Below are positions 21,401 through 45,124 of a DNA stretch of 63,631 nucleotides, piece by piece (within the stretch, counting starts at the first letter, position 1; each line of letters starts with the position of its first letter). A program made the position numbers and the translations under genes. Source of the stretch: Actinomycetota bacterium (GTDB lineage: Bacteria > Actinomycetota > Acidimicrobiia > IMCC26256 > PALSA-555); assembly GCA_016870595.1 (NCBI GenBank), contig VGBI01000004.1, positions 1 to 63,631 of the forward strand, given 5' to 3'. Below the pieces are notes generated by a model. It was not told where the DNA came from and made no database searches. It saw only the letters and a list, made by a program, of their open reading frames with translations.

Positions 21401-21403
21401 ACG

Positions 21404-26212: not shown

Positions 26213-26226
26213 GGGGCGGACGCGGT

Positions 26227-26257
26227 TTGTCCGGCGAGCGAGCCCCCTGCATAGACT
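26227..26257 (+). promoter_or_regulatory. weak candidate promoter for the second nuo operon (TTGTCC - 19 nt - TAGACT)
   Basis: Hexamers at 26227..26232 and 26252..26257. GGAGG (26287..26291) lies 7 nt before the nuoA GTG. The spacer is longer than optimal, so this is tentative. Confidence 0.25.
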
Positions 26258-26298
26258 GCGCCCGCAGGCCCACTGGGGTCCCGACGGAGGCTGCGCGC

Positions 26299-26661: not shown

Positions 26662-27230
26662 TCGACAAGGGCCGGACGCCCAAGCCGCTCACCTGGCTGC
26701 TCAACTACAGCCGGAAGTACTCCCTGTGGATGTTCCAGTGGGGACTGGCCTGCTGCGCGATCGAGATGGGGGCCGCCTTGGCGAGCCCGCGCTACGACAT
26801 GATGCGCCTCGGCGTCATCCCCTTCCCGGCCAGCCCGCGCCAGGCCGACCTCGTGGTCATCTCGGGGACCGTCACCGACAAGATGGCCCCGGCCATCCGG
26901 CGCCTCTACGAGCAGATGCCCGACCCGAAGTACGTGATCTCGATGGGGTCGTGCGCCAACTGCGGCGGCCCCTACTGGGACTCGTACTCGGTCACCAAGG
27001 GCGTCGATCAGATCATCCCGGTCGACATCTACGTGCCGGGGTGCCCGCCCCGACCCGAGGCGCTGCTGCAGGCGATCGTCATGCTCCAGGCCCAGATCCA
27101 GAACGAGGGGATCGGCAACGACCAGCTCCAGAAGCGCTGGCGCGGTGAGCCGGTCGTGATCGACGACCCCCACACGGCGCCGGTGGTCCTCGGCCCGAAG
27201 CCCGAGCCGACGGCGGTGCCCGTTGTCTGA
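26652..27230 (+). CDS. nuoB: complex-I-like subunit B, second copy
   Basis: [20 protein letters not shown] and [10 protein letters not shown] mean all four N2 cluster cysteines are present. GTG start at 26652. Confidence 0.92.
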
Positions 27231-28032
27231 CGAGACGCCCGCCGTCACCGAGGGCGACGACGTGCCCGAGGCCGCGCCTCCGACCGCAGAGGCGCCTGCG
27301 CCCGAGACCGCAGAGGCGCCTGCGCCCGAGACCGCAGAGGCGCCTGCGCCCGAGACCGCAGAGGCGCGCCCGGACCCGGTCCACCTCGATCTCCTCGACC
27401 GGATCGAACGGGCCCTGCCCGGCGCGGTGATCGAGCACGGCACCGCCTGCGGCGAGCTCGTGATCCGGGTCACCAACCCCTCGTGGGGCCCGCTGGCCGG
27501 GGTCGCCCGCAGCGACCTCGAGTGCGACTACCTCTCGTTCGTCTCGGCCATCGACTGGGCGCCCACCCCCCGCGACGGCGGTGACGACGCCGGGGGCGAC
27601 ACCTCGGCGCCGGTGCAGCCGACGGAGATGACGTTCGGAGTGGCCGGCTCGGCGGGTCGGTTCCAGGTGTTCGCCCGTGTGCAGTCCACCGCCCGGGGCT
27701 GGGGCGCAACGTTCAAGGTCGACGTCGACGAGACGAACCCGCTCGTGGCGTCGTGGGTCGGGGTCTACCCCGGGGCCGACTGGCACGAGCGCGAGACCTG
27801 GGAGATGTTCGGCGTCCGCTTCGACGGCCACCCGAACCTGCGCCAGCTGTACCTGCCGGCCGGCTTCGAGGGGCACCCGCTGCGCAAGGACTTCCCGCTG
27901 CTGGCCCGGGTCGTGAAGCCCTGGCCCGGGCTGGTCGACGTCGAGGCGATGCCCGAGGAGGCCGCTGCGGTCACCGCCGGCGGAGACGGTGCAGGAGACG
28001 GTGCAGGAGACGGTGCAGGAGGTGGCGAGTGA
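27223..28032 (+). CDS. nuoC: complex-I-like subunit C, second copy, with repeat-encoded low-complexity N- and C-termini
   Basis: [43 protein letters not shown] is the NuoC signature. The start (TTG 27223 or GTG 27262) is uncertain. Confidence 0.88.
27283..27367 (+). repeat. in-frame 24-bp tandem repeat x3.5 (accgcagaggcgcctgcgcccgag, encoding TAEAPAPE) inside nuoC copy 2
   Basis: Units at 27283, 27307 and 27331, plus a partial unit at 27355, all identical. A second 12-bp x3 repeat (ggagacggtgca, GDGA) lies at 27982..28017. Confidence 0.95.
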
Positions 28033-29216
28033 GCACGACCGAGATGCCGAGCGCCCCGGACTTCGAGCTCGAGCGGAGCGCGATGCGTCATCTCGCCGAC
28101 GCCCAGATGAACGTCGAGCTGGACACCGGCGACATGATCCTCAACCTGGGTCCGCAGCACCCGGCCACGCACGGCACGCTGCGCCTCGTCGTCCGGCTCG
28201 ACGGCGAGCGGGTGATCGCGGCCGACCCCGTCATCGGCTACATGCACCGGGGCTACGAGAAGCTCACCGAGTTCCGGACCTACCCGCAGATCACCACGCT
28301 CATCAACCGCATCGACTGGCTGTCGAGCTTCGCCAACGAGGTGCCGTTCGTCCACGCGGCTGAGCAGCTGATGGGCATCGAGGCCCCGGCCCGGGCGCAG
28401 TACATCCGCACGATCCTCACGGAGCTCTCGCGCATCGCGACCTTCGTGCTGTTCCTCGGCGAGATGGGCCTGCAGGTCGGCGCGCTGACCCCGGCCTTCT
28501 ACGGCTTCCGTGACCGTGAGCACGTCCTCAACCTGATCGAGGGCGCGACCGGCGGTCGCTTCCACCCCAACTTCAACCGCATCGGCGGCCTCAAGGACGA
28601 CCTCCCGTGGGGCTGGGTGTCCGAGACCCGCCAGGTGATGCAGCTGGTCCTCGACTCGTGCGACCAGTTCGAGGACCTGGTGGTGGGCAACGAGATCTTC
28701 CTCAGCCGTACCCGGGGGATCGGCATCATCCCCGGCGACATCGGGACCGCCTACGGGGTGTCGGGATCCAACCTGCGCGCCTCGGGTGTCGACTGGGACC
28801 TCCGGCGCGACGGCGTGCCCTACCTCGCCTACCCCGACCTCGACTTCAAGGTCTGGACCCATGCGGCCGGCGACTCGTTCGCCCGGTACTGGGTCCGGCT
28901 CCAGGAGACCCGGGAGTCGGTGCGCATGGTCCTCCAGCTCCTCGACGGGCTGCCCGCCGGTCCGGTCATGGCCAAGGTGCCGCGCATCATCAAGGTGCCA
29001 GAGGGCGAGGCCTGGGTCGAGACCGAGAACCCCCTCGGGCAGATGGGGTACTACATCGTCTCCAAGGGAGCGACCGGGCCGTTCCGGGTCAAGATCCGGT
29101 CGGCGTCGTTCAGCAACGTGTCGATCCTGCCCTGGCTGCTCCGGGGTGTGTACGTTCCCGACGTCGTGACGATCCTCGCCTCGCTCTACTTCATCCTGGG
29201 GGACATCGACCGGTGA
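28029..29216 (+). CDS. nuoD: complex-I-like subunit D, second copy
   Basis: LNLGPQHPATHGTLRL, IGYMHRGYEK and the C-terminal YFILGDIDR. 395 aa. GTGA junction with nuoC copy 2. Confidence 0.93.
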   Translation: MSTTEMPSAPDFELERSAMRHLADAQMNVELDTGDMILNLGPQHPATHGTLRLVVRLDGERVIAADPVIGYMHRGYEKLTEFRTYPQITTLINRIDWLSSFANEVPFVHAAEQLMGIEAPARAQYIRTILTELSRIATFVLFLGEMGLQVGALTPAFYGFRDREHVLNLIEGATGGRFHPNFNRIGGLKDDLPWGWVSETRQVMQLVLDSCDQFEDLVVGNEIFLSRTRGIGIIPGDIGTAYGVSGSNLRASGVDWDLRRDGVPYLAYPDLDFKVWTHAAGDSFARYWVRLQETRESVRMVLQLLDGLPAGPVMAKVPRIIKVPEGEAWVETENPLGQMGYYIVSKGATGPFRVKIRSASFSNVSILPWLLRGVYVPDVVTILASLYFILGDIDR

Positions 29217-30256
29217 ACGCCGTTGCGCTCACGACCCTCGGGATCGAGATCGGCTGGGGTGCCGCCCTGGCGATCAAGACGCTGGTGATCCTGTTGATCA
29301 TCCCGGCGGGCGCGCTCATCCTCGGCTACGTCTTCCTGCTCAAGATGATGAGCCACATGCAGAGCCGGCTCGGCCCGATGGACCCGGGTGGCTTCCACGG
29401 CTGGTTCCAGCTGATCGGCGACGGCCTCAAGTTCGTGCAGAAGGAAGACCTGATGCCCGACGGGGCCGACCGCAAGGTCTTCGCCGGCGCCCCGGCCGTG
29501 GTCCTGATCTCGACCTTCCTGGTCTTCCTCGTCATCCCGATGGGCCCCGACCTCGTGGTCAAGGACCTCGACATCGGGGTGTTCTACGCCCTGGCGGTGT
29601 CGAGCCTCTCGGTCATCGGGATCCTGATGGCGGGCTGGTCGAGCGCGAACAAGTACGCCCTCCTGGGTGGGCTTCGGGCCGCGGGCCAGCTCATCGCCTA
29701 CGAGCTGCCCCTGCTCCTCGCCGTCATCGGGGTGGTCATCCAGGCCGGCACGATGAGCCTCAACGGGATCGTGGTCGCCCAGCAGCAGCAGTCGATCTTC
29801 GGGATCGACTGGATCGGGAACCCCTACATCCTCACCCAGTTCGTGGGCTTCCTGATCTTCCTCATCGCGGCGCAGGCCGAGCTCACCCAGACCCCGTTCG
29901 ACATGCCGGTCGCCGAGAGCGAGCTCGTCGGCGGGTACCACGTGGAGTACACGGGCTTCCGGTTCCTCTTCTTCTTCATGGGCGAGTACGGCACCGCCTT
30001 CGCGTTCTCGGCGATCGCCGCGACCCTGTTCCTCGGCGGGTACGCGCTGCCGTGGGTCGACGGCGACCTCGCCAACTGGATCGGCCCCCTCGTCCTCTTC
30101 GCCAAGCTCATGCTCGTGGCGTTCCTCATGTTCTGGGCCCGCTTCACCTTCCCGCGGCTCCGTGAGGACCAGCTCCAGGCGTTCGCGTGGAAGTTCCTGA
30201 TCCCGCTGGGCCTGGCGAACCTGCTCGTGACGGCCCTCTTCAAGGTGGCGTTCTGA
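29213..30256 (+). CDS. nuoH: complex-I-like subunit H, second copy
   Basis: [54 protein letters not shown] and PRLREDQL. Its GTG overlaps the nuoD copy 2 stop, leaving no room for E/F/G genes. Confidence 0.93.
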
Positions 30257-30744
30257 TGGCCCGCAAGAAGATCCCGGGGATGATCGGGGGTCTCGGTATC
30301 ACGTTCAAGACGATGCTGAAGCCCGCGGTGACGGTGCAGTACCCCCACGAGAAGGAGGAGCCCCCGACGCGGGCGCGCGGGGTGATCGCGCTCAAGGAGG
30401 AGAACTGCACCGTCTGCATGCTGTGCGCACGCTCGTGCCCCGACTGGTGCATCTACATCGAGGGTCACAAGGAGAAGCGCCCGCCCCGGCGTGAAGGCGG
30501 ACGCGACCGGACGGTCAGCGTCCTCGACCGCTTCGATATCGACTACTCCCTGTGCATGTACTGCGGGATCTGCGTCGAGGTCTGCCCCTTCGACGCGCTG
30601 TTCTGGAGCCCGGAGTACGAGTACTCCGAGCACAGCATCGCCCGCCTCCTCCACGACAAGGTGAAGTTGGGCGAGTGGATGGAGACCGTCCCGGAGCCCG
30701 AGCCGCTCGAGGTCGGCGCCGAGTCGGCGAAGAAGAAGAAGTAG
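30256..30744 (+). CDS. nuoI: complex-I-like subunit I, second copy
   Basis: [12 protein letters not shown] and [12 protein letters not shown] are two 4Fe-4S motifs. 162 aa. Confidence 0.92.
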
Positions 30745-30751
30745 CCCGGCC

Positions 30752-31258
30752 ATGTGGGAGCAGCAGGTCGCCTTCTGGATCATCGCGGTCGCCATGGCCG
30801 GCGCGGCGATCGGGGTCGTCCGCGCCAACAACGTGGTCCACGCCGCCCTCTTCCTCATCGTGGTGTTCGCCGGCAGCGCCGCGCAGTACATCCTGCTGCT
30901 CGCCGAGTTCGTCGCCTGGGTGCAGGTGCTGATCTACATCGGCGCCATCATCGTGCTGTTCCTCTTCGGCGTCATGCTCACCCGGGCCCCGATGCGCGAG
31001 GAACGCGGCAAGCTCGACAACTCCCAGCGCCTGGCTGCCGCCGTGGTGGCCCTGTTCCTGTTCGGCGTGCTCGCGGTGTTCCTCGTCGACGCCTTCGCCG
31101 GGACCGAGCTCCGCTTCCGCGACTCGATGGTCGAGGTCGGGAGCGCGGCGAGCGTCGGGGAGTCGATCTTCCGCCAGTTCGTGATCCCGTTCGAGGTCGT
31201 GTCGATGCTGCTCCTCGCCGCCCTGGTGGGCGCGGTCGCCCTGGCGCGGAGGGACTGA
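30752..31258 (+). CDS. nuoJ: complex-I-like subunit J, second copy
   Basis: [50 protein letters not shown] is the ND6/NuoJ pattern. Confidence 0.9.
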
Positions 31259-31262
31259 TCCG

Positions 31263-31562
31263 ATGCCGATCAACTACTTCCTGATCCTCAGCGCGTTCCT
31301 GTTCTGCGCCGGTGCGTACGGGGTCCTGGCCCGGCGGAACTCGGTGCTGGTCCTGATGAGCGTGGAGCTGATGCTCAACGCCGTGAACATCAACCTGATC
31401 GCGTTCTCGGCCCAGGCCCAGGACGTGGCCGGCCAGGTCTTCGCACTGTTCGTGATCACGATCGCTGCCGCCGAGGTCGGCATCGGTCTGGCCATCGTGC
31501 TGCTGATCTACCGCAACCTCCGGAGCCCCGATCTCGATCGGGTCGAGCAGCTGAAGGGCTGA
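31263..31562 (+). CDS. nuoK: complex-I-like subunit K, second copy
   Basis: 99 aa. [17 protein letters not shown] and [17 protein letters not shown]. Confidence 0.93.
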
Positions 31563-31570
31563 TTCGTACG

Positions 31571-33649
31571 ATGCTCGACAACGTCTGGATCATCCCGCTC
31601 ATCCCGGCGGTCTCGTACCTGCTGATCCTCTTCTTCGGCAAGCGCATGCCGAAGAAGGGGGCTGAGATCGGGATTGCCGCGCTCGGTGCGGCATTCGTGC
31701 TCGCCTGCATCACGGTGATGCAGTGGATCGACCGGGTCGAGGCCGCGGTCAGCAAGGAAGGTGGCGCGGCCACGGGCCTGGGTGCCCTCGGGCGCAGCGT
31801 CGTGGCTGCGGCAACCGGCGCTCCCGAGGTCGAGCCGGTCGTGCGCGGGTTCACCTGGTGGGAGAACGGGCCGGCCAAGTTCGAGATCGGTGCCCGCGTC
31901 GACGGTCTCGTCGTGATGATGCTGGTGGTCGTCACCCTCATCTCGCTGCTCGTGCACGTGTACAGCACGGCCTACATGCACGAGGACCGTCGCTTCACCC
32001 ACTACTACGCCGCGCTCTCGCTGTTCTCCGCCTCGATGCTGTTCATGGTCATCTCGGCGAACCTGCTGCAGCTCATGGTCGGGTGGGAGCTGGTCGGACT
32101 GTGCTCCTTCATGCTGATCGGGCACTGGTGGGAGGAGAAGCCGAACTCCAACGCAGCGTTGAAGGCCTTCCTCACCACCCGGACCGGTGACGTCGGCCTG
32201 ATGACGGGCATCATCATCGTCTTCTTTGCCGCCGGGTCGTTCGACATCTCGGTCGTCAACGAGTACGCCCTGAGCCCCGAGGTCAACCACGGCCTCATGA
32301 TGTGGGCGTCGGTGGCGCTGATGTTCGGCATCATGGGCAAGTCGGGACAGTTCTTCCTGCACACCTGGCTGCCCGACGCCATGGCCGGACCGACCCCGGT
32401 GTCGGCCCTCATCCACGCCGCGACCATGGTCGTCGCCGGCGTCTTCCTGGGTGCCCGCGTCTACCCGGTGTTCTGGGAGGGCTTCAGCATCGGTGGCGGC
32501 GGGCTCAACATGATGGCCGTCGTCGGCGGCGTCACGATCATCGTCGGGGCGGCGCTCGCCTTCGTCCAGAACGACATCAAGAAGGTGTTGGCCTACTCGA
32601 CCGTGAGCCAGCTCGGCTACATGGTCATGGCCCTCGGGGTCGGTGCCTGGCTGGGTGCGGTGTTCCACCTCTTCACCCACGCCTTCTTCAAGGCCTGCCT
32701 CTTCCTCGGGGCCGGCTCGATCAGCCACTCCGCCACCCACCACTCCTTCGACATGCGGGAGATGGGTGGGCTGCGCAAGCCCATGCCGGTCACCTTCTGG
32801 ACGTTCATCGTCGGCACCATCGCCCTGGCCGGCATCTTCCCCTTCGCCGGGTTCTGGTCGAAGGACGAGATCCTGGCCACCGCCGACCAGGGTGACTTCC
32901 GCATCTTCCTCGTGGTGGGTCTGATCGGCGCGGCCATGACCGCCGCCTACATGACCCGCTGCGTGTACCTCACGTTCTTCGGGCAGTACCGGGGTCATCA
33001 CCATCCGCACGAGTCCACCCCGGCCATCACCGTGCCGCTGGTGATCCTCGCAGTGCTCTCGGTGGTCGCTGGGCTCCTGCAGTCGGCACCGTTCGAGATC
33101 AAGAAGTTCCAGGAGTGGTTCGAGCAGGTGGGCGGCCTGCCGAAGGAGATGATCATCCCCGAGTTCGACTACGGCCTCGCGGCCATCTCGGTCAGCCTCG
33201 CCACCATCGTGGTCGGGGTCGCCGCCTTCTTCGTGTTCCGGCGCGAGGAGCACGGGGCCCTCAAGGGTCTCACCCAGCGCAACCGGGTCGCCCACGCGGG
33301 CTACCGGTTCCTCGAGCGCAAGTACTACCTCGACGACCTCTACGAGGGCGTCATCGTCGCCGGGGTCAAGGGGCCGATCGCCCGCGGCTCGAACTGGATC
33401 AACCAGTACGTCATCGACGGCGTCGTCAACGCCGTCGGACGGGGGAGCGCACGGGCGGGTCGCTGGGCCTACGAGGTCTTCGACCAGGAGGTCGTCGACG
33501 GCGCGGTCAACGACATCGGGCGCGAGACCGTCTTGGCGGGCGGCGGCATGTCGAAGCTGCAGTCCGGACGACTCCAGCGGTACGCCCTCTTCCTGCTCGC
33601 CTCCGTCGGGGTCATCGGCCTTGCGGTCTACATCGTCAACGTCGCTTAG
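31571..33649 (+). CDS. nuoL: complex-I-like subunit L, second copy
   Basis: MVGWELVGLCSFMLIGHWW, GKSGQFFLHTWLPDAMAGPTPVSALIHAATMVVAGV and WSKDEIL. 692 aa. Confidence 0.93.
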   Translation: MLDNVWIIPLIPAVSYLLILFFGKRMPKKGAEIGIAALGAAFVLACITVMQWIDRVEAAVSKEGGAATGLGALGRSVVAAATGAPEVEPVVRGFTWWENGPAKFEIGARVDGLVVMMLVVVTLISLLVHVYSTAYMHEDRRFTHYYAALSLFSASMLFMVISANLLQLMVGWELVGLCSFMLIGHWWEEKPNSNAALKAFLTTRTGDVGLMTGIIIVFFAAGSFDISVVNEYALSPEVNHGLMMWASVALMFGIMGKSGQFFLHTWLPDAMAGPTPVSALIHAATMVVAGVFLGARVYPVFWEGFSIGGGGLNMMAVVGGVTIIVGAALAFVQNDIKKVLAYSTVSQLGYMVMALGVGAWLGAVFHLFTHAFFKACLFLGAGSISHSATHHSFDMREMGGLRKPMPVTFWTFIVGTIALAGIFPFAGFWSKDEILATADQGDFRIFLVVGLIGAAMTAAYMTRCVYLTFFGQYRGHHHPHESTPAITVPLVILAVLSVVAGLLQSAPFEIKKFQEWFEQVGGLPKEMIIPEFDYGLAAISVSLATIVVGVAAFFVFRREEHGALKGLTQRNRVAHAGYRFLERKYYLDDLYEGVIVAGVKGPIARGSNWINQYVIDGVVNAVGRGSARAGRWAYEVFDQEVVDGAVNDIGRETVLAGGGMSKLQSGRLQRYALFLLASVGVIGLAVYIVNVA

Positions 33650-33669
33650 CTGAGGGGATCACACGGCAC

Positions 33670-35220
33670 ATGGACTGGTTCGATGACTGGGCGCTGACCC
33701 TCGCGGTCTTCACCCCGCTCGTCGGGATGGCGATCGTCTTGCTGATCCCGCGGGCGGAGGAAGCTGCGATCAAGGTCGTCGCCCTCCTCACCTCTCTCGT
33801 GACCCTGGCGATCGGGGTCGGCATCCTCGTCGACTTCGACTTCGGGAACACGGCCAAGATGCAGTTCCAGGTCGACAAGGAGTGGATCCCGGTCATCAAC
33901 GCCCGGTACCACCTCGGGATTGACGGCATCTCGCTGCCGCTGCTGATCCTGACCATGGTGATCGTGCCGTTGTGCATCATCTACTCGCTGGACCACTTCC
34001 CGGAGCCGCACAACCCGAAGGCGTTCCTGGCCCTGATCCTCCTGCTCGAGGTCGGGATGATCGGGACCTTCGTCGCCCTCGACCTCGTGCTCTTCTTCAT
34101 CTTCTTCGAGGTCGTCCTCCTCCCGATGTTCTTCATGATCGGGGTCTGGGGGGGCCCGAACCGCGAGTACGCGTCGATCAAGTTCTTCCTCTTCACCCTC
34201 TTCGGCTCGGCGCTGATGCTGGTGAGCTTCCTCGCCCTCTACTTCCTGTCGAAGCGGTCGACGTTCGACATCAGCACCCTCGCCTCGTTCGAGGGTGCCG
34301 GCATCACCAGGGGCACCCAGGTCCTGCTGTTCGCCGGCCTCTTCCTCGGCTTCGCGATCAAGGTGCCGATGTTCCCGTTCCACACCTGGCTCCCCGATGC
34401 CCACACCGAGGCGCCGACGGTGGGCTCGGTGCTGCTGGCCGCCGTGCTCCTGAAGCTCGGCACCTACGGCTTCATCCGCATCGCACTGCCGATCCTGCCC
34501 GAGGGGGCGCAGGTCTGGGCCCCCTGGATCGGCCTCCTGTCGGTCATCGGCATCATCTACGGCGCCCTGTGCTGTCTGGCGCAACGCGACATGAAGCGGC
34601 TGATCGCGTTCTCGTCGGTCGCCCACATGGGCTTCGTGATGCTCGGCATCGCGACGCTCACCGACTTCGGCGTCAACGCCGCCGTGTTCGGCATGGTCGC
34701 CCACGGTCTCATCACCGGGATGCTGTTCTTCCTGGCCGGCTCGATCCAGCACCGCTACCACACCCGGGAGATGTCCCGGCTCGGTGGCCTGCTCGTCTCG
34801 GCACCGAAGATGGGCTGGATCCTCGGCTTCTGCGCCATGGCCTCCCTCGGCCTGCCCGGCCTGGCCGGCTTCTGGGGCGAGTTCCCGGCGGTGCTCAGCG
34901 CGTTCGAGCCGTCACGCCTGGCCAACGGCATCCTCGGCAACACCGCCAGCACGCTCTGGACCTTCCGGACCTTCATGGTCGTCGCTGCGATCGGCACCGT
35001 CCTGGCGGCCGGCTACCTCCTCTGGATGTACCAGCGGGTCGGCATGGGGACGCCCAAGCCGGAGTTCGAGGACGCCCACATCCACGACGTCCACCGCCCC
35101 GAGTGGGTGGCCTGGACGCCGCTGCTCCTGGGCATCGTGGTCTTCGGTCTGTTCCCGAACCTGATCTTCTCCATCACCAACGACGCCGCCAGCTCGATCA
35201 CCCGAGCCTTCTCGGGTTAG
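33670..35220 (+). CDS. nuoM: complex-I-like subunit M, second copy
   Basis: FFIFFEVVLLPMFFMI, KVPMFPFHTWLPDAHTEAPTVGSVLLAAV and IAFSSVAHMGF. ATG at 33670 is preceded by GAGGGGA. Confidence 0.92.
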   Translation: MDWFDDWALTLAVFTPLVGMAIVLLIPRAEEAAIKVVALLTSLVTLAIGVGILVDFDFGNTAKMQFQVDKEWIPVINARYHLGIDGISLPLLILTMVIVPLCIIYSLDHFPEPHNPKAFLALILLLEVGMIGTFVALDLVLFFIFFEVVLLPMFFMIGVWGGPNREYASIKFFLFTLFGSALMLVSFLALYFLSKRSTFDISTLASFEGAGITRGTQVLLFAGLFLGFAIKVPMFPFHTWLPDAHTEAPTVGSVLLAAVLLKLGTYGFIRIALPILPEGAQVWAPWIGLLSVIGIIYGALCCLAQRDMKRLIAFSSVAHMGFVMLGIATLTDFGVNAAVFGMVAHGLITGMLFFLAGSIQHRYHTREMSRLGGLLVSAPKMGWILGFCAMASLGLPGLAGFWGEFPAVLSAFEPSRLANGILGNTASTLWTFRTFMVVAAIGTVLAAGYLLWMYQRVGMGTPKPEFEDAHIHDVHRPEWVAWTPLLLGIVVFGLFPNLIFSITNDAASSITRAFSG

Positions 35221-35230
35221 GAGCCGTTCC

Positions 35231-36700
35231 GTGGGTACCCCGTACTTCGACTACCACGCGCTCGCGCCGGTCATCGTGCTGGCGGCCGTTGCGCTGCTCG
35301 CCTTGGTCGTCGACTTCGTCTGGAAGGACGGTGGTCGTCGGGCCGTGCCCCAGATCGCGGGGATCGGGCTGCTCCTCGCACTGATCCCGGTGTTCACCCT
35401 CGCGGCCGACGGCGAGACCCGGTCGATGTTCGGCGGCGCGTTCGTGGTCGACAACTACGCGCTGGCCTTCGCCGGGTTCTTCCTCATCGTGGGCTACGTG
35501 GCGGTCCTGATGTCGTATGACTACATCGACGAAGGCGACTACTACCGGGGCGAGTACTACGTGCTGCTGGTCACCTCGGTGCTGGGGATGGTCGTCCTCG
35601 CCTCGGCCCGCGACCTCATCACGATCTTCGTCGCGATCGAGACGGTCACCCTGCCGACCTTCGTGCTCGCCGGGTGGCGCAAGCACGACACCCGGTCCAA
35701 CGAGGCCGCGATCAAGTACTTCATCATCGGCGTCCTGTCATCGGCGGTCATGCTCTACGGCATGTCGCTCATCTTCGGTCTGAGCAACAGCACCCTGCTC
35801 TCCGAGATCGGCTCGGTGGCGAGTGGCGACAATCCCGCCCTCTTCGCGGTGGCGATCTTCCTCACCCTCGCCGGCTTCGCCTTCAAGGTCTCGGCAGTGC
35901 CCTTCCACTTCTGGGCGCCCGACACCTACCAGGGCGCCCCGCTCCCGGTGACGGCGTTCCTGTCGGTGGCGTCGAAGGCGGCCGGGTTCGTGGCCATGCT
36001 CTCCGTCGTCGCCCTCGGCTTCTTCGCCAGCCCGAACTCCTGGCAGCCCGTGATCTGGATCCTCGCCGCCGCCTCCATCGTGGTGGGGAACCTGGCCGCA
36101 CTGCGCCAGACCGATGTCGTGCGGATGCTCGCCTACTCCTCGGTGGCCCAGGGTGGGTTCATCCTGGTGCCCTTGGCGGTGTCGGGCGACAACGACGCCG
36201 CCCGGGCCGGCTTCCAGGGCGTGCTCGTCTACATCCTCATCTACGCCGCGATGAACATGGGTGCGTTCGCCTGCGTGATCGCCAACGCCCGGCGCACCCG
36301 CTCCACCGAGATCCAGTCCTTCTCGGGTCTGGGGCGGTCCAACCCGGCGATGGCCGTGGTCTTCACGGTCTTCCTGTTCTCGCTGGCCGGCATCCCCCCC
36401 TTCGCCGGGTGGTTCGCCAAGTTCGTGATGTTCCGGGCCGTCCTCGACGCCGGGACCACCGCCGCCGTCGTGCTGGGCGTGCTGGCCGCAGTGTTCTCGG
36501 TGGTCGCGTTCTTCTACTACGGCACGGTGATCCGGCGGATGTGGTTCCACGCGCCGGTCGATCTGGGCGACACCGGGTCGCCGCAGGTCCCGGGGGCCCT
36601 GGTGGCGGCGATGGCCATCACCACCACGGTGGTCGTCGTGATCGGGGTCTATCCGCAGCTGTTCGCCAAGATCGGGGATCTCGCCTTCCGGGCGACCTGA
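35231..36700 (+). CDS. nuoN: complex-I-like subunit N, second copy
   Basis: FVAIETVTLPTFVLA, FKVSAVPFHFWAPDTYQGAPLPVTAFL and LAYSSVAQGGF. 489 aa. Confidence 0.92.
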   Translation: MGTPYFDYHALAPVIVLAAVALLALVVDFVWKDGGRRAVPQIAGIGLLLALIPVFTLAADGETRSMFGGAFVVDNYALAFAGFFLIVGYVAVLMSYDYIDEGDYYRGEYYVLLVTSVLGMVVLASARDLITIFVAIETVTLPTFVLAGWRKHDTRSNEAAIKYFIIGVLSSAVMLYGMSLIFGLSNSTLLSEIGSVASGDNPALFAVAIFLTLAGFAFKVSAVPFHFWAPDTYQGAPLPVTAFLSVASKAAGFVAMLSVVALGFFASPNSWQPVIWILAAASIVVGNLAALRQTDVVRMLAYSSVAQGGFILVPLAVSGDNDAARAGFQGVLVYILIYAAMNMGAFACVIANARRTRSTEIQSFSGLGRSNPAMAVVFTVFLFSLAGIPPFAGWFAKFVMFRAVLDAGTTAAVVLGVLAAVFSVVAFFYYGTVIRRMWFHAPVDLGDTGSPQVPGALVAAMAITTTVVVVIGVYPQLFAKIGDLAFRAT

Positions 36701-36748
36701 GCGGTCCGGTCCGGGGCGCACCCACCGAATCCCGACGAGGGAGACCAG

Positions 36749-37912
36749 ATGGAGCTCGAGGCCCGGCTCCGGGAACGGATCGGTCGGGAGGGACCGATCG
36801 CCTTCGCCGACTTCCAGGAGGCGGCGCTCTACGACCCGGTGGCGGGTTTCTTCTCCCGAGGTGGGGGCGCGGGCCGGGCCGGACGCGACTTCGTGACCAG
36901 CCCCGAGGTCGGCGGACTGTTCGGGATGGTGGTGGCGCGTGCGCTCGACGCCGCCTGGGACCGCCTGGGCCGACCCGACCCGTTCCTGGTCGTCGAGGCG
37001 GGGGCCGGACGCGGGCGACTGGCCGCCGACGTCCTGCGGTCCCACCCGGCCTGCGCGCCGGCGCTGCGCTACGTCCTGGTCGAGCGGTCGGCCCAGCTCC
37101 GCGACGAGCAGCGGTCCCGGTTGCCGGTCGAGCCCCCCGACGAGGCGCTCGGTCCCTTCGTGACCGGCGACGACGAGGTGCCCGAGCCCGAGCCGGGGCG
37201 GGGTCCGATCGTGACCGCCCTCGAGGAGCTGCCCGCAGTGACGGTGCGCGGGGTAGTGCTGGCCAACGAGCTGCTCGACAACCTCCCGGTCCACCTGGTC
37301 GAGCGGACGGCATCGGGGTGGGCCGAGGTCCGCGTCGACTGCGACGACGTCGGCTTCACCGAGACCGTCGTCCCCGCGCCGCCGGCGCTGGCCGCGGAGG
37401 CCGACGTCGTGGCCGAGGGCGCGGTGGTCGTCCCGGGCGCCCGGATCCCGGTGCCCCGGGCCGCCCGGGCCTGGCTCGAAGCGGTGAGTGCGCGGCTCCG
37501 GGTCGGTGAGGTCGTCCTGTTCGACTACGTCGACACCACGTCGTCGCTGGCGGCCCGGGGTCAGGCGGCCTGGCTGCGCACCTATCGCGGGCACGAGCGC
37601 GGCGACGGTCCCCTTCGTGAACCCGGGACCCAGGACATCACCTGCGACCTGCCGCTCGAGTACCTCCGCCACGTGACCGCGCGCCTGGGGCTGTCCGTGG
37701 TCGAGTACCGCACGCAGCGTGAGTGGCTGGCCGGTCACGGTATCGCCGACCTCGTCGCCGACGGCGACCGCATCTGGCGGGAGGGGGCCGCCCGGGGCGA
37801 CCTGGCCGCGCTGGCCGGGCGGAGCCGGGGGGTCGAGGCGGCCGCGCTCACCGACCCGGCGGGGCTGGGGGCACACCGGGTCCTGGTGCTGCGTCGCGAC
37901 GCCTCGGGATAG
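36749..37912 (+). CDS. class I SAM-dependent methyltransferase of the MidA/NDUFAF7 (DUF185, COG1565) family
   Basis: [49 protein letters not shown] and TQDITCDL match the MidA/NDUFAF7 conserved blocks as I recall them. It lies 48 nt after nuoN copy 2 on the same strand. Confidence 0.8.
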
Positions 37913-37991: not shown

Positions 37992-39964
<1,973 letters not shown>

Positions 39965-39968
<4 letters not shown>

Positions 39969-40453
39969 CCGGGACCCCCGAAAACTGGAACTGGCGCGCC
40001 GGACCGGTCGCTCCCGGCCGGGCCGCGGTCGTCGACATCGACGGGGTCCTCTCCGACGCCGCGAGCCGCCAGCACTACCTCGAGGCCCCGCGCCGCGACT
40101 GGCAGGGGTTCTTCGACGCGTGCACCGACGACCCGGTGATCGAGGAGATGCGGGTCCTGCTCGACCTGCTCGGGCCCGACCTCCACGTCGTCCTGCTCAC
40201 GGCCCGTCCCGAGCGGCTCCACCCGATCACCGAGGGGTGGCTGCGGCGGTACTCGATCCGGTGGGACCTCCTGATCATGCGGGGCGAGGACGCCACCGGG
40301 TCGACGAGCGAGTTCAAGCAGGGGACCGTCGACGAGCTGCGCCGCTACGGCTTCGAGCTGCTCCTCGCGTTCGAGGACGACCGGCGCAACGTCGAGATGT
40401 TCCGCTCGGTCGGTGTCCCGTGCGTCTACTTCCACTCCGGCTACTACGACTGA
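39965..40453 (+). CDS. HAD-superfamily phosphatase-like protein
   Basis: 162 aa. The motif I-like [10 protein letters not shown] (DxDG) and a later LLTARPE are consistent with the HAD fold. The ATGA overlap with the acs stop suggests co-translation. Confidence 0.6.
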
Positions 40454-40472
40454 CCCGGCGCAGCGTGCAGCC

Positions 40473-41300
40473 ATGACGACGGCGACCCTGCTCGCCCTGG
40501 GCGCGGCGTTCCTCCACGCCGCGTGGAACCTCCTGATCAAGACCAACGACGACCAGTTCCTCGCCGCCTGGGGCCAGTTCCTCTTGGGGGGCCTGCTCTT
40601 CATCCCCGTGCTGCTCGTGGTCGGTCCGCCCGGCCTCGACGTCGTGCCGCTCCTCGTCTGCTCCAGTGTGGTGAACGTGGTCTACGTCGGTGCGCTGGTG
40701 CAGGCGTACCGCACCGGCGACTTCTCGCTCACCTATCCCCTGGCGCGCGGCGGCGGCGCGCTCGTCGCTGCGCTCGGGGGCGTCTGGTTCCTGTCCGACG
40801 ACCTCGGTCCGGGGACCTGGGTGGCGATCTTCGTGGTCGTCGCCGGCCTCGCGTCGCTGGTCCGTCCGGGCACCGCCACGGCCGTGCTCGGGTGGTCGGC
40901 GCTCACGGCGGCGGCGATCGGCACCTACACCACCATCGACGTCGCCGGGGCCCGCCGCTCGTCGGGGTTGGGGTACGGCATCTCGATCATGATCGGCGCC
41001 GCCCTCGCCGTGTCGCTCGCCGGCGTCGCGGTGGGCCGGGCGCCGGCGTTCGTCCGCTCGCTCCGGGGCTCCTGGCGCCGGTACGCCGTCGGCGGGGTGT
41101 GCACCACGCTCGCCTACTCGATGGTGCTGGAGGCCGGGCGGCTCGCCCCGGTCGGGTACGTGGCGGCGCTGCGCGCGTTCTCGGTCGTGATCGGGGCCCT
41201 GGGTGGGTGGCTCCTGCTCCACGAGCACCTCGGGCGCCACCGGGTCTACGCGTCCGGAGTCGTGGCGGTGGGTCTGGCCCTGCTCGTCGTCCTGCGCTGA
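40473..41300 (+). CDS. EamA/DMT-family transporter
   Basis: 275 aa with about 9-10 TM segments. The N-terminal LLALGAAFLHAAWNLLIK and the repeated EamA-like halves support the call. Trimmed to the ATG at 40473. Confidence 0.7.
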   Translation: MTTATLLALGAAFLHAAWNLLIKTNDDQFLAAWGQFLLGGLLFIPVLLVVGPPGLDVVPLLVCSSVVNVVYVGALVQAYRTGDFSLTYPLARGGGALVAALGGVWFLSDDLGPGTWVAIFVVVAGLASLVRPGTATAVLGWSALTAAAIGTYTTIDVAGARRSSGLGYGISIMIGAALAVSLAGVAVGRAPAFVRSLRGSWRRYAVGGVCTTLAYSMVLEAGRLAPVGYVAALRAFSVVIGALGGWLLLHEHLGRHRVYASGVVAVGLALLVVLR

Positions 41301-42026: not shown

Positions 42027-42695
42027 ATGGGGGATACTGAGAGCCGTCCAGGGAGGCTCGGGGTGCGGCGACGGATCGTGGGGATCGCGGCGGTGCTGGT
42101 GGCCCTGACGGCCGTCGCGGGGTGCACCGACTCCGGCTTCAACTACGTCAAGAGCTCCGAGGACCGGGCCTACTTCAAGGTCCCCGACCGCTGGACGTTG
42201 TTCGACGAGAAGGAGATGCTCACCGCGCTCGGTGGCGAGCTCACCGCGGCCGAGCGGCGGACCGAGCTCACCGACACCTGGCGGGTCGCCTTCGACGCCA
42301 GCCCCCGGCCCTCGCTCCGCCACCTCGGTGCACCCGACGCCGAGCACCCGGTCGGGCTCGCGGTCGTGCGGACGCTCGACTTCGACGCCTCCGACAAGGT
42401 CTCGCTGTCGACCTTGCGGAACTACTTCTTCGACGTCGACCAGGCCCTCGAGGCGGGCACCGCCGACGTGCTCGAGTACGAGGAGATCCAGCGTGAGGGT
42501 GGCTTCCGGGGCAGCCACATGGCCGCCACCATCGAGGTCGACGGCACGCGGATGACCATCGACCAGACCATCCTGCTCGACCAGGCCACCCGCAAGCTCT
42601 ACGGGCTGCTCGTCTCCTGCTCCGTCGGGTGCTTCGACGAGAACCGGGGCAAGATCCGGACCGTGGTCGATTCGTGGACCGTGAGGGAGAAGTGA
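42027..42695 (+). CDS. lipoprotein, unknown function
   Basis: Signal peptide plus lipobox: RRRIVGIAAVLVALTAVAGC-TDSG. 222 aa; an alternative GTG start at 42063 is possible. The stop lies 2 nt before the FtsH-like ATG. Confidence 0.7.
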   Translation: MGDTESRPGRLGVRRRIVGIAAVLVALTAVAGCTDSGFNYVKSSEDRAYFKVPDRWTLFDEKEMLTALGGELTAAERRTELTDTWRVAFDASPRPSLRHLGAPDAEHPVGLAVVRTLDFDASDKVSLSTLRNYFFDVDQALEAGTADVLEYEEIQREGGFRGSHMAATIEVDGTRMTIDQTILLDQATRKLYGLLVSCSVGCFDENRGKIRTVVDSWTVREK

Positions 42696-42697
42696 CG

Positions 42698-45124
42698 ATG
42701 GACCCCGCGCTGCCCGTCCCCTCTCGCGAGTACACGAGTCGGCCCCGCGAGAGCGAGCGGCGGACCCGCCGCCCGATGACCTGGTGGGACCGGATGAAGT
42801 TCCTGCTGCTGCTCGGGGGCCTGTTCGGGTTCTTCGTGGCCGCCGAGATGGGCGACAACCCGCTGCTGCCGTTCGGGGAGGCCTTCGACCTGACCCTCCG
42901 GGGCCAGCTGTGGATCGTCGTGCTCTTCGGGATCGAGGTGCTGCGCCAGATCCACTTCGTCGTCAGCGAGCACTCGGCCCGGTACTACCTGTTCTGGCGC
43001 GAGCGCGTCTTCGCCGCCGGGAACCGTCGCCTGAGCGGGATGAGCGCCTACACCCGGTACCGGGTCGCGCGGGCGGTCAAGTGGACGATCGTGGTCATCG
43101 CCGTGCTCGTGGTGGTCGCGCGTCTCTTCGACACCACGGTCTTCCTCGCGCCCTTCGACCTCATCAACTGGATCTCCGAGAACTCGCCGACCTACCTCCA
43201 GGCGATCGCGTACCTGTCGATCTGGGTCGGCTTCCAGGTCTTCCTGTTCGGCTTCCTGCTCACCCGGGGCGGGGTCGAGACCTTCTTCCCCGACGACATC
43301 GAGACCCGCTTCAGCGACGTCTGGGGCCAGGATCAGGTCCTGCGCAAGGTGCAGGAGAACATCGCCTTCCTCGAGGACCCTGAGCGGATCGAGAGCAAGG
43401 GCGGCTACGTCCCGGGCGGCCTGCTGCTGTGGGGTCCGCCGGGGACCGGCAAGACCCTGATGGCGGAGTCCATCGCCGGCGAGACGGGCAAGCCGTTCGT
43501 CAACATCGACGCCAGCATGCTCAACGTCGGCATCGGCATCCTGAAGGTCAAGTTCCTGTTCCGGCGGCTCCGGCGCTACGCGCTCCGCTACGGCGGGGTC
43601 GTTGCGTTCTTCGACGAGGCCGACGCCATCGGCAACCGGGGCCTGCTCGCGGGCATGCCCGGCGCGGGTGGCGGCTTCCGGTCGACGCCCGGGCCCTTCG
43701 GGGCGGCCCGGTCGTGCTGCGGGATGTCGTACGTCTCCGACGCGAGCCGGTCCGCGCTCCTCCACGGTGCGGGCTCGGGCGACGGCGTCGAGGACGTGGT
43801 CGAGGGCCGGCGCCGCAACCGGTTCTTCATGATGGGCGGTGGGGGCGGCGGGGGCGGCGGCGGGCTGCTCCAGGTGCTCCTCGCCGAGATGTCGGGGCTG
43901 AAGAAGCCCCGCGGCGTCGTCAACCGGTACGTCCGCCGGGCGTTCGGGATGAAGCCGAAGCCACCGCCCAAGTACCGCATGCTGCTGATCATGGCTACGA
44001 ACCTGCCCGAGGCCCTCGATCCCGCCATGCTGCGGCCGGGACGCATCGACCGCATCTACAAGGTCGGCTACCCGTCCAAGGCGGGGCGCATCCGCACCTA
44101 CACCGGCTACTTCGACAAGGTCCCCAACGACCTGACCGACGAGGACATCGACCGTCTCGCCACCGTCACCCCGTACGCGACCGGCGCGACGATCAAGGAC
44201 CTCGTGAACGAGTCGTTGATCAGCGCCCTGCTCGACGGTCGGGATGCGGTCACCTGGAAGGACGTCGTCAAGGCGAAGCACCTCAAGGACCTGGGGCCAC
44301 CCGAGGACGTCGAGTACATCGAGCGCGAGCGCCACGCCACCGCGCTGCACGAGGCCTGTCACGCCGTCGTCGCCTACCGGGTGCGCCAGCACCTCGTCAT
44401 CGACCTGGCCACGATCGAGAAGGGTGGCAACTACCTCGGCATGGTCAGCTCGATCCCGCCCGACGACATCTTCACCCACTGGCGCTCCGACTTCGAGGCC
44501 GACGTCATGGTGTCGCTGGCGTCGCTCGCGGGGGAGAAGATGTTCTTCGACGGCGACAGCTCCTCCGGGGTCACCGGCGACCTCGAGACCGCGACCCAGC
44601 TGGCGACGCTGATGGAGGGGTACTGGGGCATGGGCTCCACCATCACCTCCCACGCGATCACCGACCGGCTCGGCATCGGCCGCCCGGGGCCGGGTGAGGA
44701 CAAGGAGCAACGGGGCCTCCTCAAGGGCACCCTCGCCGGTCGGATCGAGTCGAAGCTGCGTGACCTGTTCGACCGGACCGAGGCGCTCCTCCGGGAGAAC
44801 CGGGGTGAGATCCTGGCCGTCACCCACGCCCTGGAGACCCACAAGACCCTCACCGGCGCCGACATCGAGGCCGTGATCGAGGGCACCGAGGGTCTGCTGG
44901 TCGACGGACGGGCCTACCGGACCCCCGAGTTCCGGGCCGTGGCCGAGGAGTACCACTCCGAGGTGGTCCGGGCCCACGCCACCCACTCGGCCGTGGCCGT
45001 GGCGCTGCCGGGCCTGCCGCCGGTGCCCGGCCTCGACGCGGTGCCGTTGGTGGCGGGCGGGGCCGACGACCATCCGGGGGTGCCCCCGGTGGCGGACGAC
45101 CCGGATCCCGAGCCCGGGGTCTAG
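42698..45124 (+). CDS. atypical FtsH-like membrane AAA+ ATPase / M41 zinc metalloprotease
   Basis: 808 aa. Four N-terminal TM helices, Walker A GPPGTGKT, Walker B VAFFDEADAIG, SRH ATNLPEALDPAMLRPGRIDR, zinc site HEACHAV (HExxH) and SSGVTGDLETAT (compare FtsH GASNDIE-AT). Confidence 0.85.
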   Translation: MDPALPVPSREYTSRPRESERRTRRPMTWWDRMKFLLLLGGLFGFFVAAEMGDNPLLPFGEAFDLTLRGQLWIVVLFGIEVLRQIHFVVSEHSARYYLFWRERVFAAGNRRLSGMSAYTRYRVARAVKWTIVVIAVLVVVARLFDTTVFLAPFDLINWISENSPTYLQAIAYLSIWVGFQVFLFGFLLTRGGVETFFPDDIETRFSDVWGQDQVLRKVQENIAFLEDPERIESKGGYVPGGLLLWGPPGTGKTLMAESIAGETGKPFVNIDASMLNVGIGILKVKFLFRRLRRYALRYGGVVAFFDEADAIGNRGLLAGMPGAGGGFRSTPGPFGAARSCCGMSYVSDASRSALLHGAGSGDGVEDVVEGRRRNRFFMMGGGGGGGGGGLLQVLLAEMSGLKKPRGVVNRYVRRAFGMKPKPPPKYRMLLIMATNLPEALDPAMLRPGRIDRIYKVGYPSKAGRIRTYTGYFDKVPNDLTDEDIDRLATVTPYATGATIKDLVNESLISALLDGRDAVTWKDVVKAKHLKDLGPPEDVEYIERERHATALHEACHAVVAYRVRQHLVIDLATIEKGGNYLGMVSSIPPDDIFTHWRSDFEADVMVSLASLAGEKMFFDGDSSSGVTGDLETATQLATLMEGYWGMGSTITSHAITDRLGIGRPGPGEDKEQRGLLKGTLAGRIESKLRDLFDRTEALLRENRGEILAVTHALETHKTLTGADIEAVIEGTEGLLVDGRAYRTPEFRAVAEEYHSEVVRAHATHSAVAVALPGLPPVPGLDAVPLVAGGADDHPGVPPVADDPDPEPGV

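Follow-up and report, generated by a model that had tools for sequence, protein, structure and literature searches.

A MidA/NDUFAF7-family methyltransferase gene behind the second complex I operon of an Acidimicrobiia bacterium and its candidate substrate, NuoD2

Results

Two complex I operons and a midA gene in one stretch of DNA

We analyzed a stretch of 63,631 nucleotides of DNA from an actinobacterium of the Acidimicrobiia (contig VGBI01000004.1), referred to here as the window. It contains two nuo operons, nuo1 and nuo2, for two complex I-type enzymes (complex 1 and complex 2), and a methyltransferase gene, midA, that follows the second operon. The features discussed below are:

9562..10122, + strand: nuoB1, with Arg codon CGG at 9781..9783, equivalent to Thermus Nqo6 Arg83
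10699..11988, + strand: nuoD1 of the 14-gene operon, with Thr in GYLHTGMEK
25249..26130, - strand: patatin-like gene, standing between nuo2 and rpiA/nuo1
26299..36700, + strand: nuo2 operon of 11 genes, with Pfam matches for every gene, in order
Approximate nuo2 gene starts: A2 26299, B2 26652, C2 27223 or 27262, D2 28029, H2 29213, I2 30256, J2 30752, K2 31263, L2 31571, M2 about 33646-33670, N2 35231
26652..27230, + strand: nuoB2, with Thr codon ACC at 26868..26870 in ISGTVTDKM, at the Thermus Nqo6 Arg83 position
28029..29216, + strand: nuoD2, 395 aa if GTG 28029 is the start; candidate substrate of MidA
36701..36748, + strand: nuoN2-midA spacer of 48 nt, with a Shine-Dalgarno-like GAGGGAG upstream of the midA ATG
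36749..37912, + strand: midA, MidA/NDUFAF7-family (PF02636) SAM-dependent methyltransferase, 387 aa, ATG start
37992..39968, + strand: acs (acetate-CoA ligase; NCBIfam NF001208, 993 bits), 79 nt past midA

The nuo1 operon comprises all 14 nuo genes, in agreement with the canonical operon of the original prediction. Solved structures served to check B and D, Pfam profiles E to L as well as N, and BLASTP against NuoC2 gene C, while M was assigned solely through its use as a tblastn query and A was read from the sequence. The nuo2 operon consists of A, B, C, D, H, I, J, K, L, M, and N, with tight or overlapping gene junctions; its gene starts were picked by alignment to the called genes of two related loci (L085 and L089). 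Pfam searches found no nuoE, F, or G in nuo2, including between D and H, in agreement with the predicted 11-gene operon lacking these three genes. We take the 11-subunit complex to be the 'ancestral' type of Moparthi and Hagerhall 2011.

The stop codon of nuoN2 lies at 36700 and midA starts at 36749, which places the 387-aa reading frame 48 nt past nuoN2, as had been proposed. A consensus scan revealed no terminator-like site in this spacer, RNA folding of the spacer was no better than that of shuffled sequences (z = 0.30), and consensus promoter and terminator scans around midA returned nothing informative. In relatives (the best 80 of at least 581), the median nuoN2-midA spacer is 31 nt. In two of the loci, L089 and L081, the genes as called in the database even overlap, by 4 nt and 8 nt, respectively.

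The midA product is a full-length member of the MidA/NDUFAF7 family

The profile HMM search suggested in the original prediction gave a match to PF02636 (Methyltransf_28) with an E value of 2.4e-42 and a score of 145.6 bits, where the Pfam cut-off is 23.3; the alignment takes in positions 2-246 of the 249 in the profile. This match is far beyond chance and identifies the protein as a full-length family member. We understand PF02636 to be the same family as COG1565, formerly DUF185. No NCBIfam model matched the midA reading frame. All four of the predicted DUF185/MidA sequence blocks were located, at 36887..36925, 36992..37036, 37262..37294, and, for LFDY, 37517..37528.

Comparisons with solved structures also back the family assignment, both by sequence and by fold. 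Sequence matches were obtained to 4F3N (E = 3.5e-27), Dictyostelium MidA 5ZTZ (2.8e-17), and 1ZKD (1.5e-16). An AlphaFold2 model of the product (pLDDT 82.5, pTM 0.84) was used for a Foldseek search, in which the top six hits were all MidA/COG1565 structures aligned over the whole length (4G67, 4F3N, 5ZTZ, 5ZU0, 1ZKD; TM 0.72-0.77), whereas other methyltransferases reached a TM of at most 0.42. The model thus predicts a seven-beta-strand methyltransferase core together with the extra domains specific to MidA. The closest solved structures are those from Burkholderia thailandensis (4F3N/4G67) and Rhodopseudomonas palustris (1ZKD), at TM 0.72-0.76; 4F3N and 4G67 (COG1565) and 1ZKD (DUF185) are structural-genomics entries with no assigned substrate. 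By sequence, the uncharacterized COG1565 protein of Burkholderia is a closer match to the window protein than Dictyostelium MidA of known structure is.

Catalytic residues were judged from motif conservation. Across 17 MidA homologues (60-95% identity), residues G85/G87/G89, E112, N173/E174/D177/P180, and D259/Y260 are invariant, and the motifs E-x-G-x-G-x-G, N-E-L-L-D-N-L-P, and D-Y are unchanged. The window segments VEAGAGRG and ANELLDNLP align with VEMGPGRG and AQEFFDALP of Dictyostelium MidA.

The two complexes differ reciprocally at the N2 site

NuoD2 reads PVIGYMHRGYEK at 28227..28262, where Arg74 (CGG, 28248..28250) forms part of GYMHRGYEK. At the corresponding place, 10927..10962, NuoD1 reads PVIGYLHTGMEK, with Thr (ACC, 10948..10950). 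The predicted difference between Arg in NuoD2 (HRG) and Thr in NuoD1 (HTG) is therefore present, at the very codons that had been named. By offset, NuoD2 Arg74 aligns with residue 64 of Thermus thermophilus Nqo4 and residue 65 of Paracoccus denitrificans Nqo4, positions that are named as Thr64 and Arg65, respectively, in PMC3829151 and PMC3750175. The NuoD1 motif aligns with IGYLHTGIEK of Mycobacterium smegmatis NuoD and IGYLHTGFEK of T. thermophilus Nqo4. Since its residue is Thr, NuoD1 is not methylatable at the target site.

The NuoB subunits show the opposite pattern. NuoB1 residue 74 corresponds to Nqo6 residue 83 (offset +9 to chain 2fug_6; query 10-159 against chain 19-167), so that the window holds a reciprocal swap: Thr in NuoD1 with Arg in NuoB1, and Arg in NuoD2 with Thr in NuoB2. 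Mitochondrial PSST presumably also has Thr at the Nqo6 R83 position, like NuoB2. Structural work places the Nqo6 Arg83 side chain near N2, filling the space of the dimethyl-Arg of NDUFS2 (PMC8042128). Judged from these residues, of the two complexes only complex 2 appears to have the N2-site layout of systems with a dimethylated NuoD Arg, namely mitochondria and Paracoccus. Beyond the target motif, NuoD2 most resembles Thermus Nqo4 and cyanobacterial NdhH, and not mitochondrial NDUFS2.

Both NuoD2 and NuoB2 keep these residues in relatives. Among the best 80 of at least 581 relatives, GYMHRGYEK was present in 50/50 NuoD2 proteins, and NuoB2 reads [SA]GT wherever the fetched sequence spans the site. 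Because the NuoD2 motif never varies in these Acidimicrobiia loci, the clade itself leaves no room for a covariation test.

midA is linked to nuo genes in three arrangements

About 170 related loci underlie the gene-order comparison overall. The genome loci, every one Acidimicrobiia-like, are the 80 best among at least 581 relatives; their MidA proteins are 49-76% identical to that of the window, and the counts in this paragraph refer to these 80. The original prediction called for the gene to recur beside nuo operons in relatives, and it does: of the 72 loci that are informative for this linkage (at least 1.6 kb upstream of midA), 65 have nuoN2 no more than 300 nt from midA. The acs gene is within 300 nt in 37/63 informative loci and downstream at any distance in 58/63; in many loci other genes intervene between midA and acs, and in 5/63 acs is missing from the fetched sequence downstream of midA. 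The wider neighborhood common to the 80 loci includes acs, HAD, yajQ, and the tuf-secE-nusG-rplKA region. Synteny of midA and nuo within Acidimicrobiia could be largely inherited.

Loci with other gene orders extend this picture. In L085 the order is nuoN1, midA, and then nuoA2 66 nt on; in L088 midA lies 138 nt past nuoN1, with nuo2 about 5 kb downstream. The nuo2 operon just downstream of midA encodes an HRG-type NuoD2 in both. A second clade of Actinomycetota has a lone nuoD convergent to midA in 25 of its 26 informative loci (at least 4.5 kb downstream of midA). Neither in this clade nor in L085 and L088 did the surroundings of midA yield an acs gene. The link between midA and nuo is thus kept in three arrangements (midA behind nuoN2, midA with nuo1 on one side and nuo2 on the other, and midA next to a lone nuoD), spanning MidA homologues that are about 30% identical to each other. 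That nuoD is the sole nuo gene nearby in the second clade points to NuoD itself as the partner. The lone NuoD retains Arg throughout, within HRA in 24 cases and HRG in 11. Gly is usual after Arg at arginine methylation sites; most of the lone NuoD genes encode Ala there. Some MidA homologues have no nuo gene nearby: that of L086 adjoins cox genes, and in L016 midA-acs-HAD stands behind an FAD oxidoreductase gene and nuoN2 is lacking.

Discussion

Comparison with characterized and described systems

Human NDUFAF7 and MidA of Dictyostelium discoideum are mitochondrial complex I assembly factors that symmetrically dimethylate NDUFS2 Arg85. The window protein shares with them PF02636, the overall fold (TM about 0.76 to 5ZTZ and 5ZU0), and the SAM motif, and its candidate substrate NuoD2, like the NuoD/NDUFS2 orthologue in those systems, carries H-R-G-x-E-K. 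It differs in being only ~23% identical in structural alignment, in being bacterial and lacking a targeting sequence, in its location in a nuo operon, and in its partner, complex 2, which has no NADH-oxidizing module.

To our knowledge, the midA gene of alpha-proteobacteria is not adjacent to nuo. A review reports that bioinformatics and structures point to methylation of NDUFS2 by alpha-proteobacterial NDUFAF7 homologues, and that Dictyostelium MidA methylates an arginine of an NDUFS2 peptide (PMC9006661); according to a 2025 paper, MidA function in prokaryotes has been inferred in silico only. The closest experimental precedent in bacteria is P. denitrificans, in which Nqo4 Arg65, the residue that NuoD2 Arg74 matches by offset, is symmetrically and fully dimethylated (Carroll 2013; PMC3750175). 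Because this was shown in 2013, the description of the modification as a step regarded as mitochondrial did not survive. Unlike nuo2, the Paracoccus enzyme is a canonical 14-subunit alpha-proteobacterial complex, and the enzyme that methylates it has not been demonstrated. The conserved Arg249 of E. coli NuoCD is unmodified (PMC3750175). A conserved Arg therefore does not imply methylation. We know of no MidA homologue in E. coli.

The Thr-type enzymes offer a second comparison. The HTG motif is common to T. thermophilus, M. smegmatis, and NuoD1, and NuoB1 Arg74 is at the same position as Thermus Nqo6 R83. This pattern is the architecture of complex 1, unlike that of the midA-linked complex 2, and supplies an internal negative control.

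The layout of an 11-subunit nuo operon followed by NDUFAF7 is already known from Ca. Actinomarina (Bulzu et al. 2021; bioRxiv 10.1101/2021.02.01.429150). There the cluster runs heliorhodopsin, nuoABCDHIJKLMN, NDUFAF7 (PF02636, regarded as an accessory assembly component), htpX, pspE, with a 14-subunit operon nearby as in the window. The genes that follow differ, htpX and pspE in Ca. Actinomarina and acs and HAD in the window. No heliorhodopsin or afu genes were seen upstream of nuoA2 in the window, where the patatin-like gene is found instead. The passages of the preprint considered here make no mention of the NuoD Arg/Thr and NuoB Thr/Arg signatures.

A proposed role for MidA in the maturation of complex 2

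Methylation of NuoD2 by MidA is, in our view, a well-supported hypothesis that builds on the observed family, fold, motifs, spacing, linkage, and residue swap. From these we infer the catalytic activity of MidA, NuoD2 Arg74 as its substrate, the type of methylation, and an effect on assembly. The reading that we consider reasonably probable is that midA encodes an active MidA/NDUFAF7-type arginine methyltransferase, is the last cistron of nuo2, and modifies NuoD2 Arg74 for complex 2. In this proposal, midA would be expressed together with the 11 genes of nuo2, as their final cistron, and its product would modify Arg74 within H-R-G-x-E-K; symmetric dimethylation is the probable reaction. If it works as NDUFAF7 does, MidA may act on NuoD2 that is free or at an early stage of assembly, before it docks on NuoB2 beside cluster N2. 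Methylated NuoD2 might then promote the assembly of complex 2, tune the N2 site, or both. Complex 1 would be unable to use MidA at the target site, given Thr in NuoD1, and NuoB1 would provide the Arg near N2, as in Thermus. The original prediction of a factor dedicated to the second complex only was thus upheld in part: the NuoB/NuoD swap and the gene orders, which are conserved and have also been rearranged independently, favor complex 2 over complex 1, but the claim of novelty for prokaryotes falls away.

The nature of the contribution of MidA to complex 2 could be different. It might serve as an assembly chaperone for NuoD2 and complex 2 that acts chiefly through binding and methylates nothing, or does so to no essential end, since gene order reveals a partnership with NuoD and not catalysis. 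A methyl-independent role of Dictyostelium MidA was reportedly described by Hameed and coworkers in 2018, and the R121M and R121K enzymes of Yarrowia still partly assemble (PMC8042128). We regard this explanation as quite unlikely: homologues of 60-95% identity show no change in the SAM-binding motif or the acidic active-site motif, the pattern expected under selection for catalysis, and in Paracoccus dimethylation of the corresponding Arg is complete. Alternatively, MidA might have a different substrate, either another protein or a small molecule, its place beside nuo2 being an inherited order without functional meaning. No bacterial MidA substrate is known, all 80 loci (best 80 of at least 581) represent one class whose wider neighborhood is conserved too, and some homologues, as in L086 and L016, stand away from any nuo gene. 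Survival of the nuo link through three arrangements and at ~30% identity among MidA proteins, as well as the lone nuoD as the sole nuo gene by midA in the second clade, renders a different substrate unlikely.

The remaining alternatives concern the partner. MidA could serve both complexes, for example via another residue of NuoD1 or via other subunits, as might be suggested by its position directly after nuoN of the 14-subunit operon in L085 and L088. Yet nuo2 with its HRG NuoD2 lies just downstream in both loci, and NuoD1 of the window lacks the sole known target residue, making service to both complexes improbable. We give least credence, and very little, to the idea that the functional partners of MidA are the acs and HAD phosphatase genes that follow it, and not nuo2. 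The short midA-acs distance in the window, the presence of acs downstream in most of the informative loci, and the midA-acs-HAD unit that persists without nuoN2 in L016 all speak for it. However, acs is close to midA in a far smaller share of loci than nuoN2 is, is often separated from it by other genes or missing downstream, and is not near midA in L085, L088, or the second clade. A long hairpin can form in the midA-acs spacer (-53.7 kcal/mol), a point against this idea that is itself not significant (z = -1.36). With its linkage looser and limited to one clade, acs was rejected as a functional partner and is probably just a neighbor of midA.

Implications

The locus offers a setting in which one genome encodes two complex I-type enzymes that differ exactly at the target site, with the methyltransferase gene tied to the Arg-type enzyme. 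No bacterial MidA/NDUFAF7 protein has a demonstrated substrate, and NuoD2 is a candidate for one. The locus also bears on the maturation of the poorly understood 11-subunit enzymes that lack an NADH-oxidizing module, and on the role of the dimethyl group on the N2-proximal arginine, for which assembly and redox tuning are still debated. Since midA and nuoD are also found paired in a second clade, their partnership can be predicted for Actinomycetota in general. More tentatively, Actinomycetota might possess two N2-site architectures, one with NuoB-Arg and NuoD-Thr (complex 1) and one with a NuoD-Arg that requires MidA (complex 2 and the lone NuoD).

If these two architectures exist as outlined, NuoD arginine methylation would be an ancient, widespread, and isoform-specific maturation step in bacteria that extends beyond alpha-proteobacteria and mitochondria, and its proposed proteobacterial origin would be put in question. 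The co-resident Thr-type complex would then be a natural control that separates the role of the methyl group from that of the arginine.

Organization of the midA locus

The gene under study, midA, begins 48 nt past the stop codon (36700) of nuoN2 in the 11-gene nuo2 operon, at the position and size given in the original prediction. The four MidA/DUF185 blocks quoted there, and the two NuoD motifs with their Arg and Thr codons, are likewise present where they had been placed.

Features around midA in the window
about 9077..24498: nuo1 operon, full set of 14 genes, upstream of nuo2
25249..26130, minus strand: patatin-like phospholipase gene, between rpiA and nuoA2
about 26299..36700, plus strand: nuo2 operon, 11 genes (nuoA, B, C, D, H, I, J, K, L, M, N)
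36749..37912, plus strand: midA, 387 aa, preceded by the ribosome-binding motif GAGGGAG
from 37992: acs (acetate-CoA ligase), following midA
39965..40453: HAD_PNKP-type phosphatase gene, after acs
40413..41300: EamA transporter gene, after the HAD gene

Gene junctions within nuo2 are overlapping or tight, and nuoE, F and G are absent from the operon (about 26299..36700). Because rpiA and the minus-strand patatin-like gene intervene after nuo1, nuo2 has its own upstream region, and its promoter should lie in the divergent stretch of ~170 nt (26131..26298) between the patatin-like gene and nuoA2. The midA-acs spacer (37913-37991) can form a long G+C-rich hairpin lacking a U tract (-53.7 kcal/mol), which is not significant against shuffled sequences (z = -1.36) and could act as a weak terminator or attenuator.

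Several other features were seen in the window, whose G+C content is 70-75%. A hydrophobic 251-aa ORF without a Pfam match (8312..9067, plus strand) lies directly 5' of nuoA1. Between the nuo2 region and tuf (41322-45124) are a minus-strand YajQ/DUF520 gene and an FtsH-like AAA+/peptidase M41 gene (42629..45124). G+C dips locally to 0.644 at 46001-48000, with strong positive GC skew (0.18), where tuf and an ECF sigma factor gene are found.

Family and fold of MidA

The proposed family assignment was borne out: Pfam PF02636 (Methyltransf_28, MidA/NDUFAF7 family; 8945 representative clusters at E <= 1e-3) matches MidA over nearly the whole profile (E 2.4e-42), while no NCBIfam model does. Among solved structures MidA is closest in sequence to 4F3N, a COG1565 protein of Burkholderia thailandensis (E 3.5e-27), followed by Dictyostelium MidA 5ZTZ (E 2.8e-17) and Rhodopseudomonas palustris DUF185 1ZKD (E 1.5e-16). 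An AlphaFold2 model (pLDDT 82.5, pTM 0.84) superimposes on these structures over its full length with TM 0.72-0.77, versus at most 0.42 for other methyltransferases in the PDB. The motif-I glycines (VEAGAGRG), Glu112, the QDIT block and the acidic loop [10 protein letters not shown]259-Y260 are invariant across 17 homologues (60-95% identity), a pattern that fits a catalytically active enzyme.

A reciprocal residue swap at cluster N2

If GTG 28029 is the start codon, the NuoD2 arginine is Arg74. By alignment offset, its counterpart in Thermus thermophilus Nqo4 (NuoD) is residue 64, a Thr in place of the methylated Arg (PMC3829151), and in Paracoccus denitrificans Nqo4 it is Arg65, which is symmetrically dimethylated (PMC3750175); the modification is thus not, as had been supposed, exclusive to mitochondria. 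Since the conserved Arg of E. coli NuoCD is unmodified (PMC3750175), the arginine alone is no proof of methylation. The aligned counterparts of the NuoD1 motif are IGYLHTGIEK in Mycobacterium smegmatis and IGYLHTGFEK in Thermus. Taken as a whole, NuoD2 is most similar to Thermus Nqo4 and cyanobacterial NdhH rather than to NDUFS2 of mitochondria.

In Thermus, R83 of the neighbouring subunit Nqo6 (NuoB) fills the same space beside the iron-sulfur cluster N2 as the NDUFS2 dimethyl-arginine (Hameedi et al., PMC8042128), and we therefore read the two NuoB genes of the window.

Residues at the N2 site of the two complexes
Complex 1 (14 genes): NuoB1 at the Nqo6-83 position, Arg in [10 protein letters not shown] (CGG 9781..9783); NuoD1 methylation site, Thr
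Complex 2 (11 genes): NuoB2 at the Nqo6-83 position, Thr in ISGTVTDKM (ACC 26868..26870); NuoD2 methylation site, Arg

The Arg and Thr are reciprocally swapped between NuoB and NuoD of the two complexes, a feature absent from the original prediction, so that both N2-site architectures are encoded in one cell. Mitochondrial PSST likewise has Thr at this NuoB position. Of the two, complex 2 alone has the layout whose NuoD arginine is methylated elsewhere.

Conservation of the arrangement in relatives

We scanned one genome per GTDB species and annotated the best 80 loci of at least 581 relatives by tblastn with the window's proteins as queries. MidA of these 80 is 49-76% identical to that of the window, and Acidimicrobiia-like gene order was found in all of them regardless of MAG label. 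Among those of the 80 with at least 1.6 kb of upstream sequence, nuoN2 lies within 300 nt of midA in 65 of 72, unrelated genes intervene in six, and an FAD oxidoreductase gene replaces nuoN2 in one (L016). The spacer between nuoN2 and midA has a median of 31 nt. In two loci outside the 80, database gene calls for nuoN and midA overlap (8 nt in L081, 4 nt in L089), which suggests translational coupling. All 50 NuoD2 sequences from these loci carry GYMHRGYEK and every NuoB2 spanning the site carries [SA]GT; because this signature is fixed, there is no covariation signal inside the clade. Seven typical nuo2-midA MAGs (L007, L008, L009, L023, L029, L058, L065) bear Burkholderiales, Bifidobacteriaceae, Sphingomonadales or Rubrobacter labels, probably through mis-binning or mislabelling.

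Remote homologues were sought with a distant representative (P0268, 39% identity to MidA) and their contigs inspected. Five (L081, L082, L084, L089, L090) again have an 11-subunit nuo operon followed by midA. In two others midA lies between the 14- and 11-subunit operons instead of its usual place after nuoN2: in L085 (7804-11515) it follows nuoN of the 14-subunit operon and ends 66 nt ahead of the nuoA2 start, and in L088 (8331-16426) it is 138 nt 3' of nuoN1, with nuo2 ~5 kb further on. No nuo gene was found within 10 kb of midA in L086. Peptidase_M48 (HtpX-like) genes recur near midA in L081, L084, L086 and L089, as do YajQ, a GNAT gene and tuf-secE-nusG-rplKA in distant relatives such as L082.

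In one remote locus, L087 (G+C ~74%, whiB close by), a nuoD-like gene stands alone 1.5 kb 3' of midA and convergent to it. A metagenome scan traced this layout to a second clade of uncultured Actinomycetota (L087 10001-13863; L091-L170; L171 10001-13903). Of the 26 loci whose sequence extends at least 4.5 kb past midA, 25 have the convergent gene (~396 aa), at times only 11-78 nt away, more often with a BNR-repeat gene between; no further nuo gene was found within 8-10 kb. The same layout occurs on a 3.45-Mb contig. All the lone NuoD proteins keep the arginine (GYMHRAAEK in 24, GYMHRGAEK in 11). With a lone nuoD paired to midA, this clade is the strongest argument that bacterial MidA has NuoD itself as its partner, beyond mere chromosomal neighbourhood.

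A proposed role for MidA in complex 2

The family, fold, motifs, spacing, synteny and residue signatures are established here; from them we infer the activity and substrate of MidA, the type of methylation and its effect on physiology. Translated from the nuo2 transcript, MidA would bind SAM and NuoD2 and dimethylate Arg74 before NuoD2 docks on NuoB2, whereupon the side chain would come to sit beside N2. MidA would thus aid assembly of complex 2 and/or set the properties of N2, and complex 1 would be independent of it. We hold this mechanism as a whole to be reasonably likely.

Synteny that is simply inherited, with a substrate unrelated to NuoD, would also account for fixed gene order within Acidimicrobiia; given the lone-nuoD clade, we think this unlikely. 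Slightly less likely is a chaperone acting by binding only, a reading against which the invariant methyltransferase motifs speak. That MidA serves both complexes is improbable: midA does lie next to nuoN1 in L085 and L088, but NuoD1 of the window has Thr at the site. A functional tie to acs seems very improbable. Among those of the best 80 of at least 581 loci that could be scored, acs lies within 300 nt of midA in 37 of 63, farther away in 21, and is missing from the fetched 3' sequence in five, a looser linkage than that of nuoN2. acs and HAD recur 3' of midA in most Acidimicrobiia loci, often with insertions, and HAD directly follows midA without acs in four.

According to a review (PMC9006661), methylation of NDUFS2 by alpha-proteobacterial homologues is indicated by bioinformatic and structural evidence, and a 2025 paper states that MidA function in prokaryotes has been deduced in silico only. 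Bulzu et al. 2021 (bioRxiv 10.1101/2021.02.01.429150) describe in Ca. Actinomarina (Acidimicrobiia) a gene unit made up of heliorhodopsin, nuoABCDHIJKLMN (11-subunit), NDUFAF7 (K18164/PF02636), htpX and pspE, with NDUFAF7 termed an accessory assembly component and a 14-subunit operon close by; the core gene order was therefore already published, in passing. Unlike in that cluster, heliorhodopsin was not found upstream of nuoA2 in the window, where a patatin-like gene lies instead. Our literature search found no mention of the reciprocal Arg/Thr-Thr/Arg signature, the class-wide breadth of the midA-nuo2 linkage, the alternative midA arrangements or the midA and lone-nuoD clade. The original interpretation is thus supported in part: comparative evidence speaks well for a dedicated complex 2 maturation factor, a prokaryotic counterpart of NDUFAF7, but the claim to novelty was overstated. 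For experiments the locus is a clean system, and it yields a prediction about bacterial MidA proteins that is both general and falsifiable.
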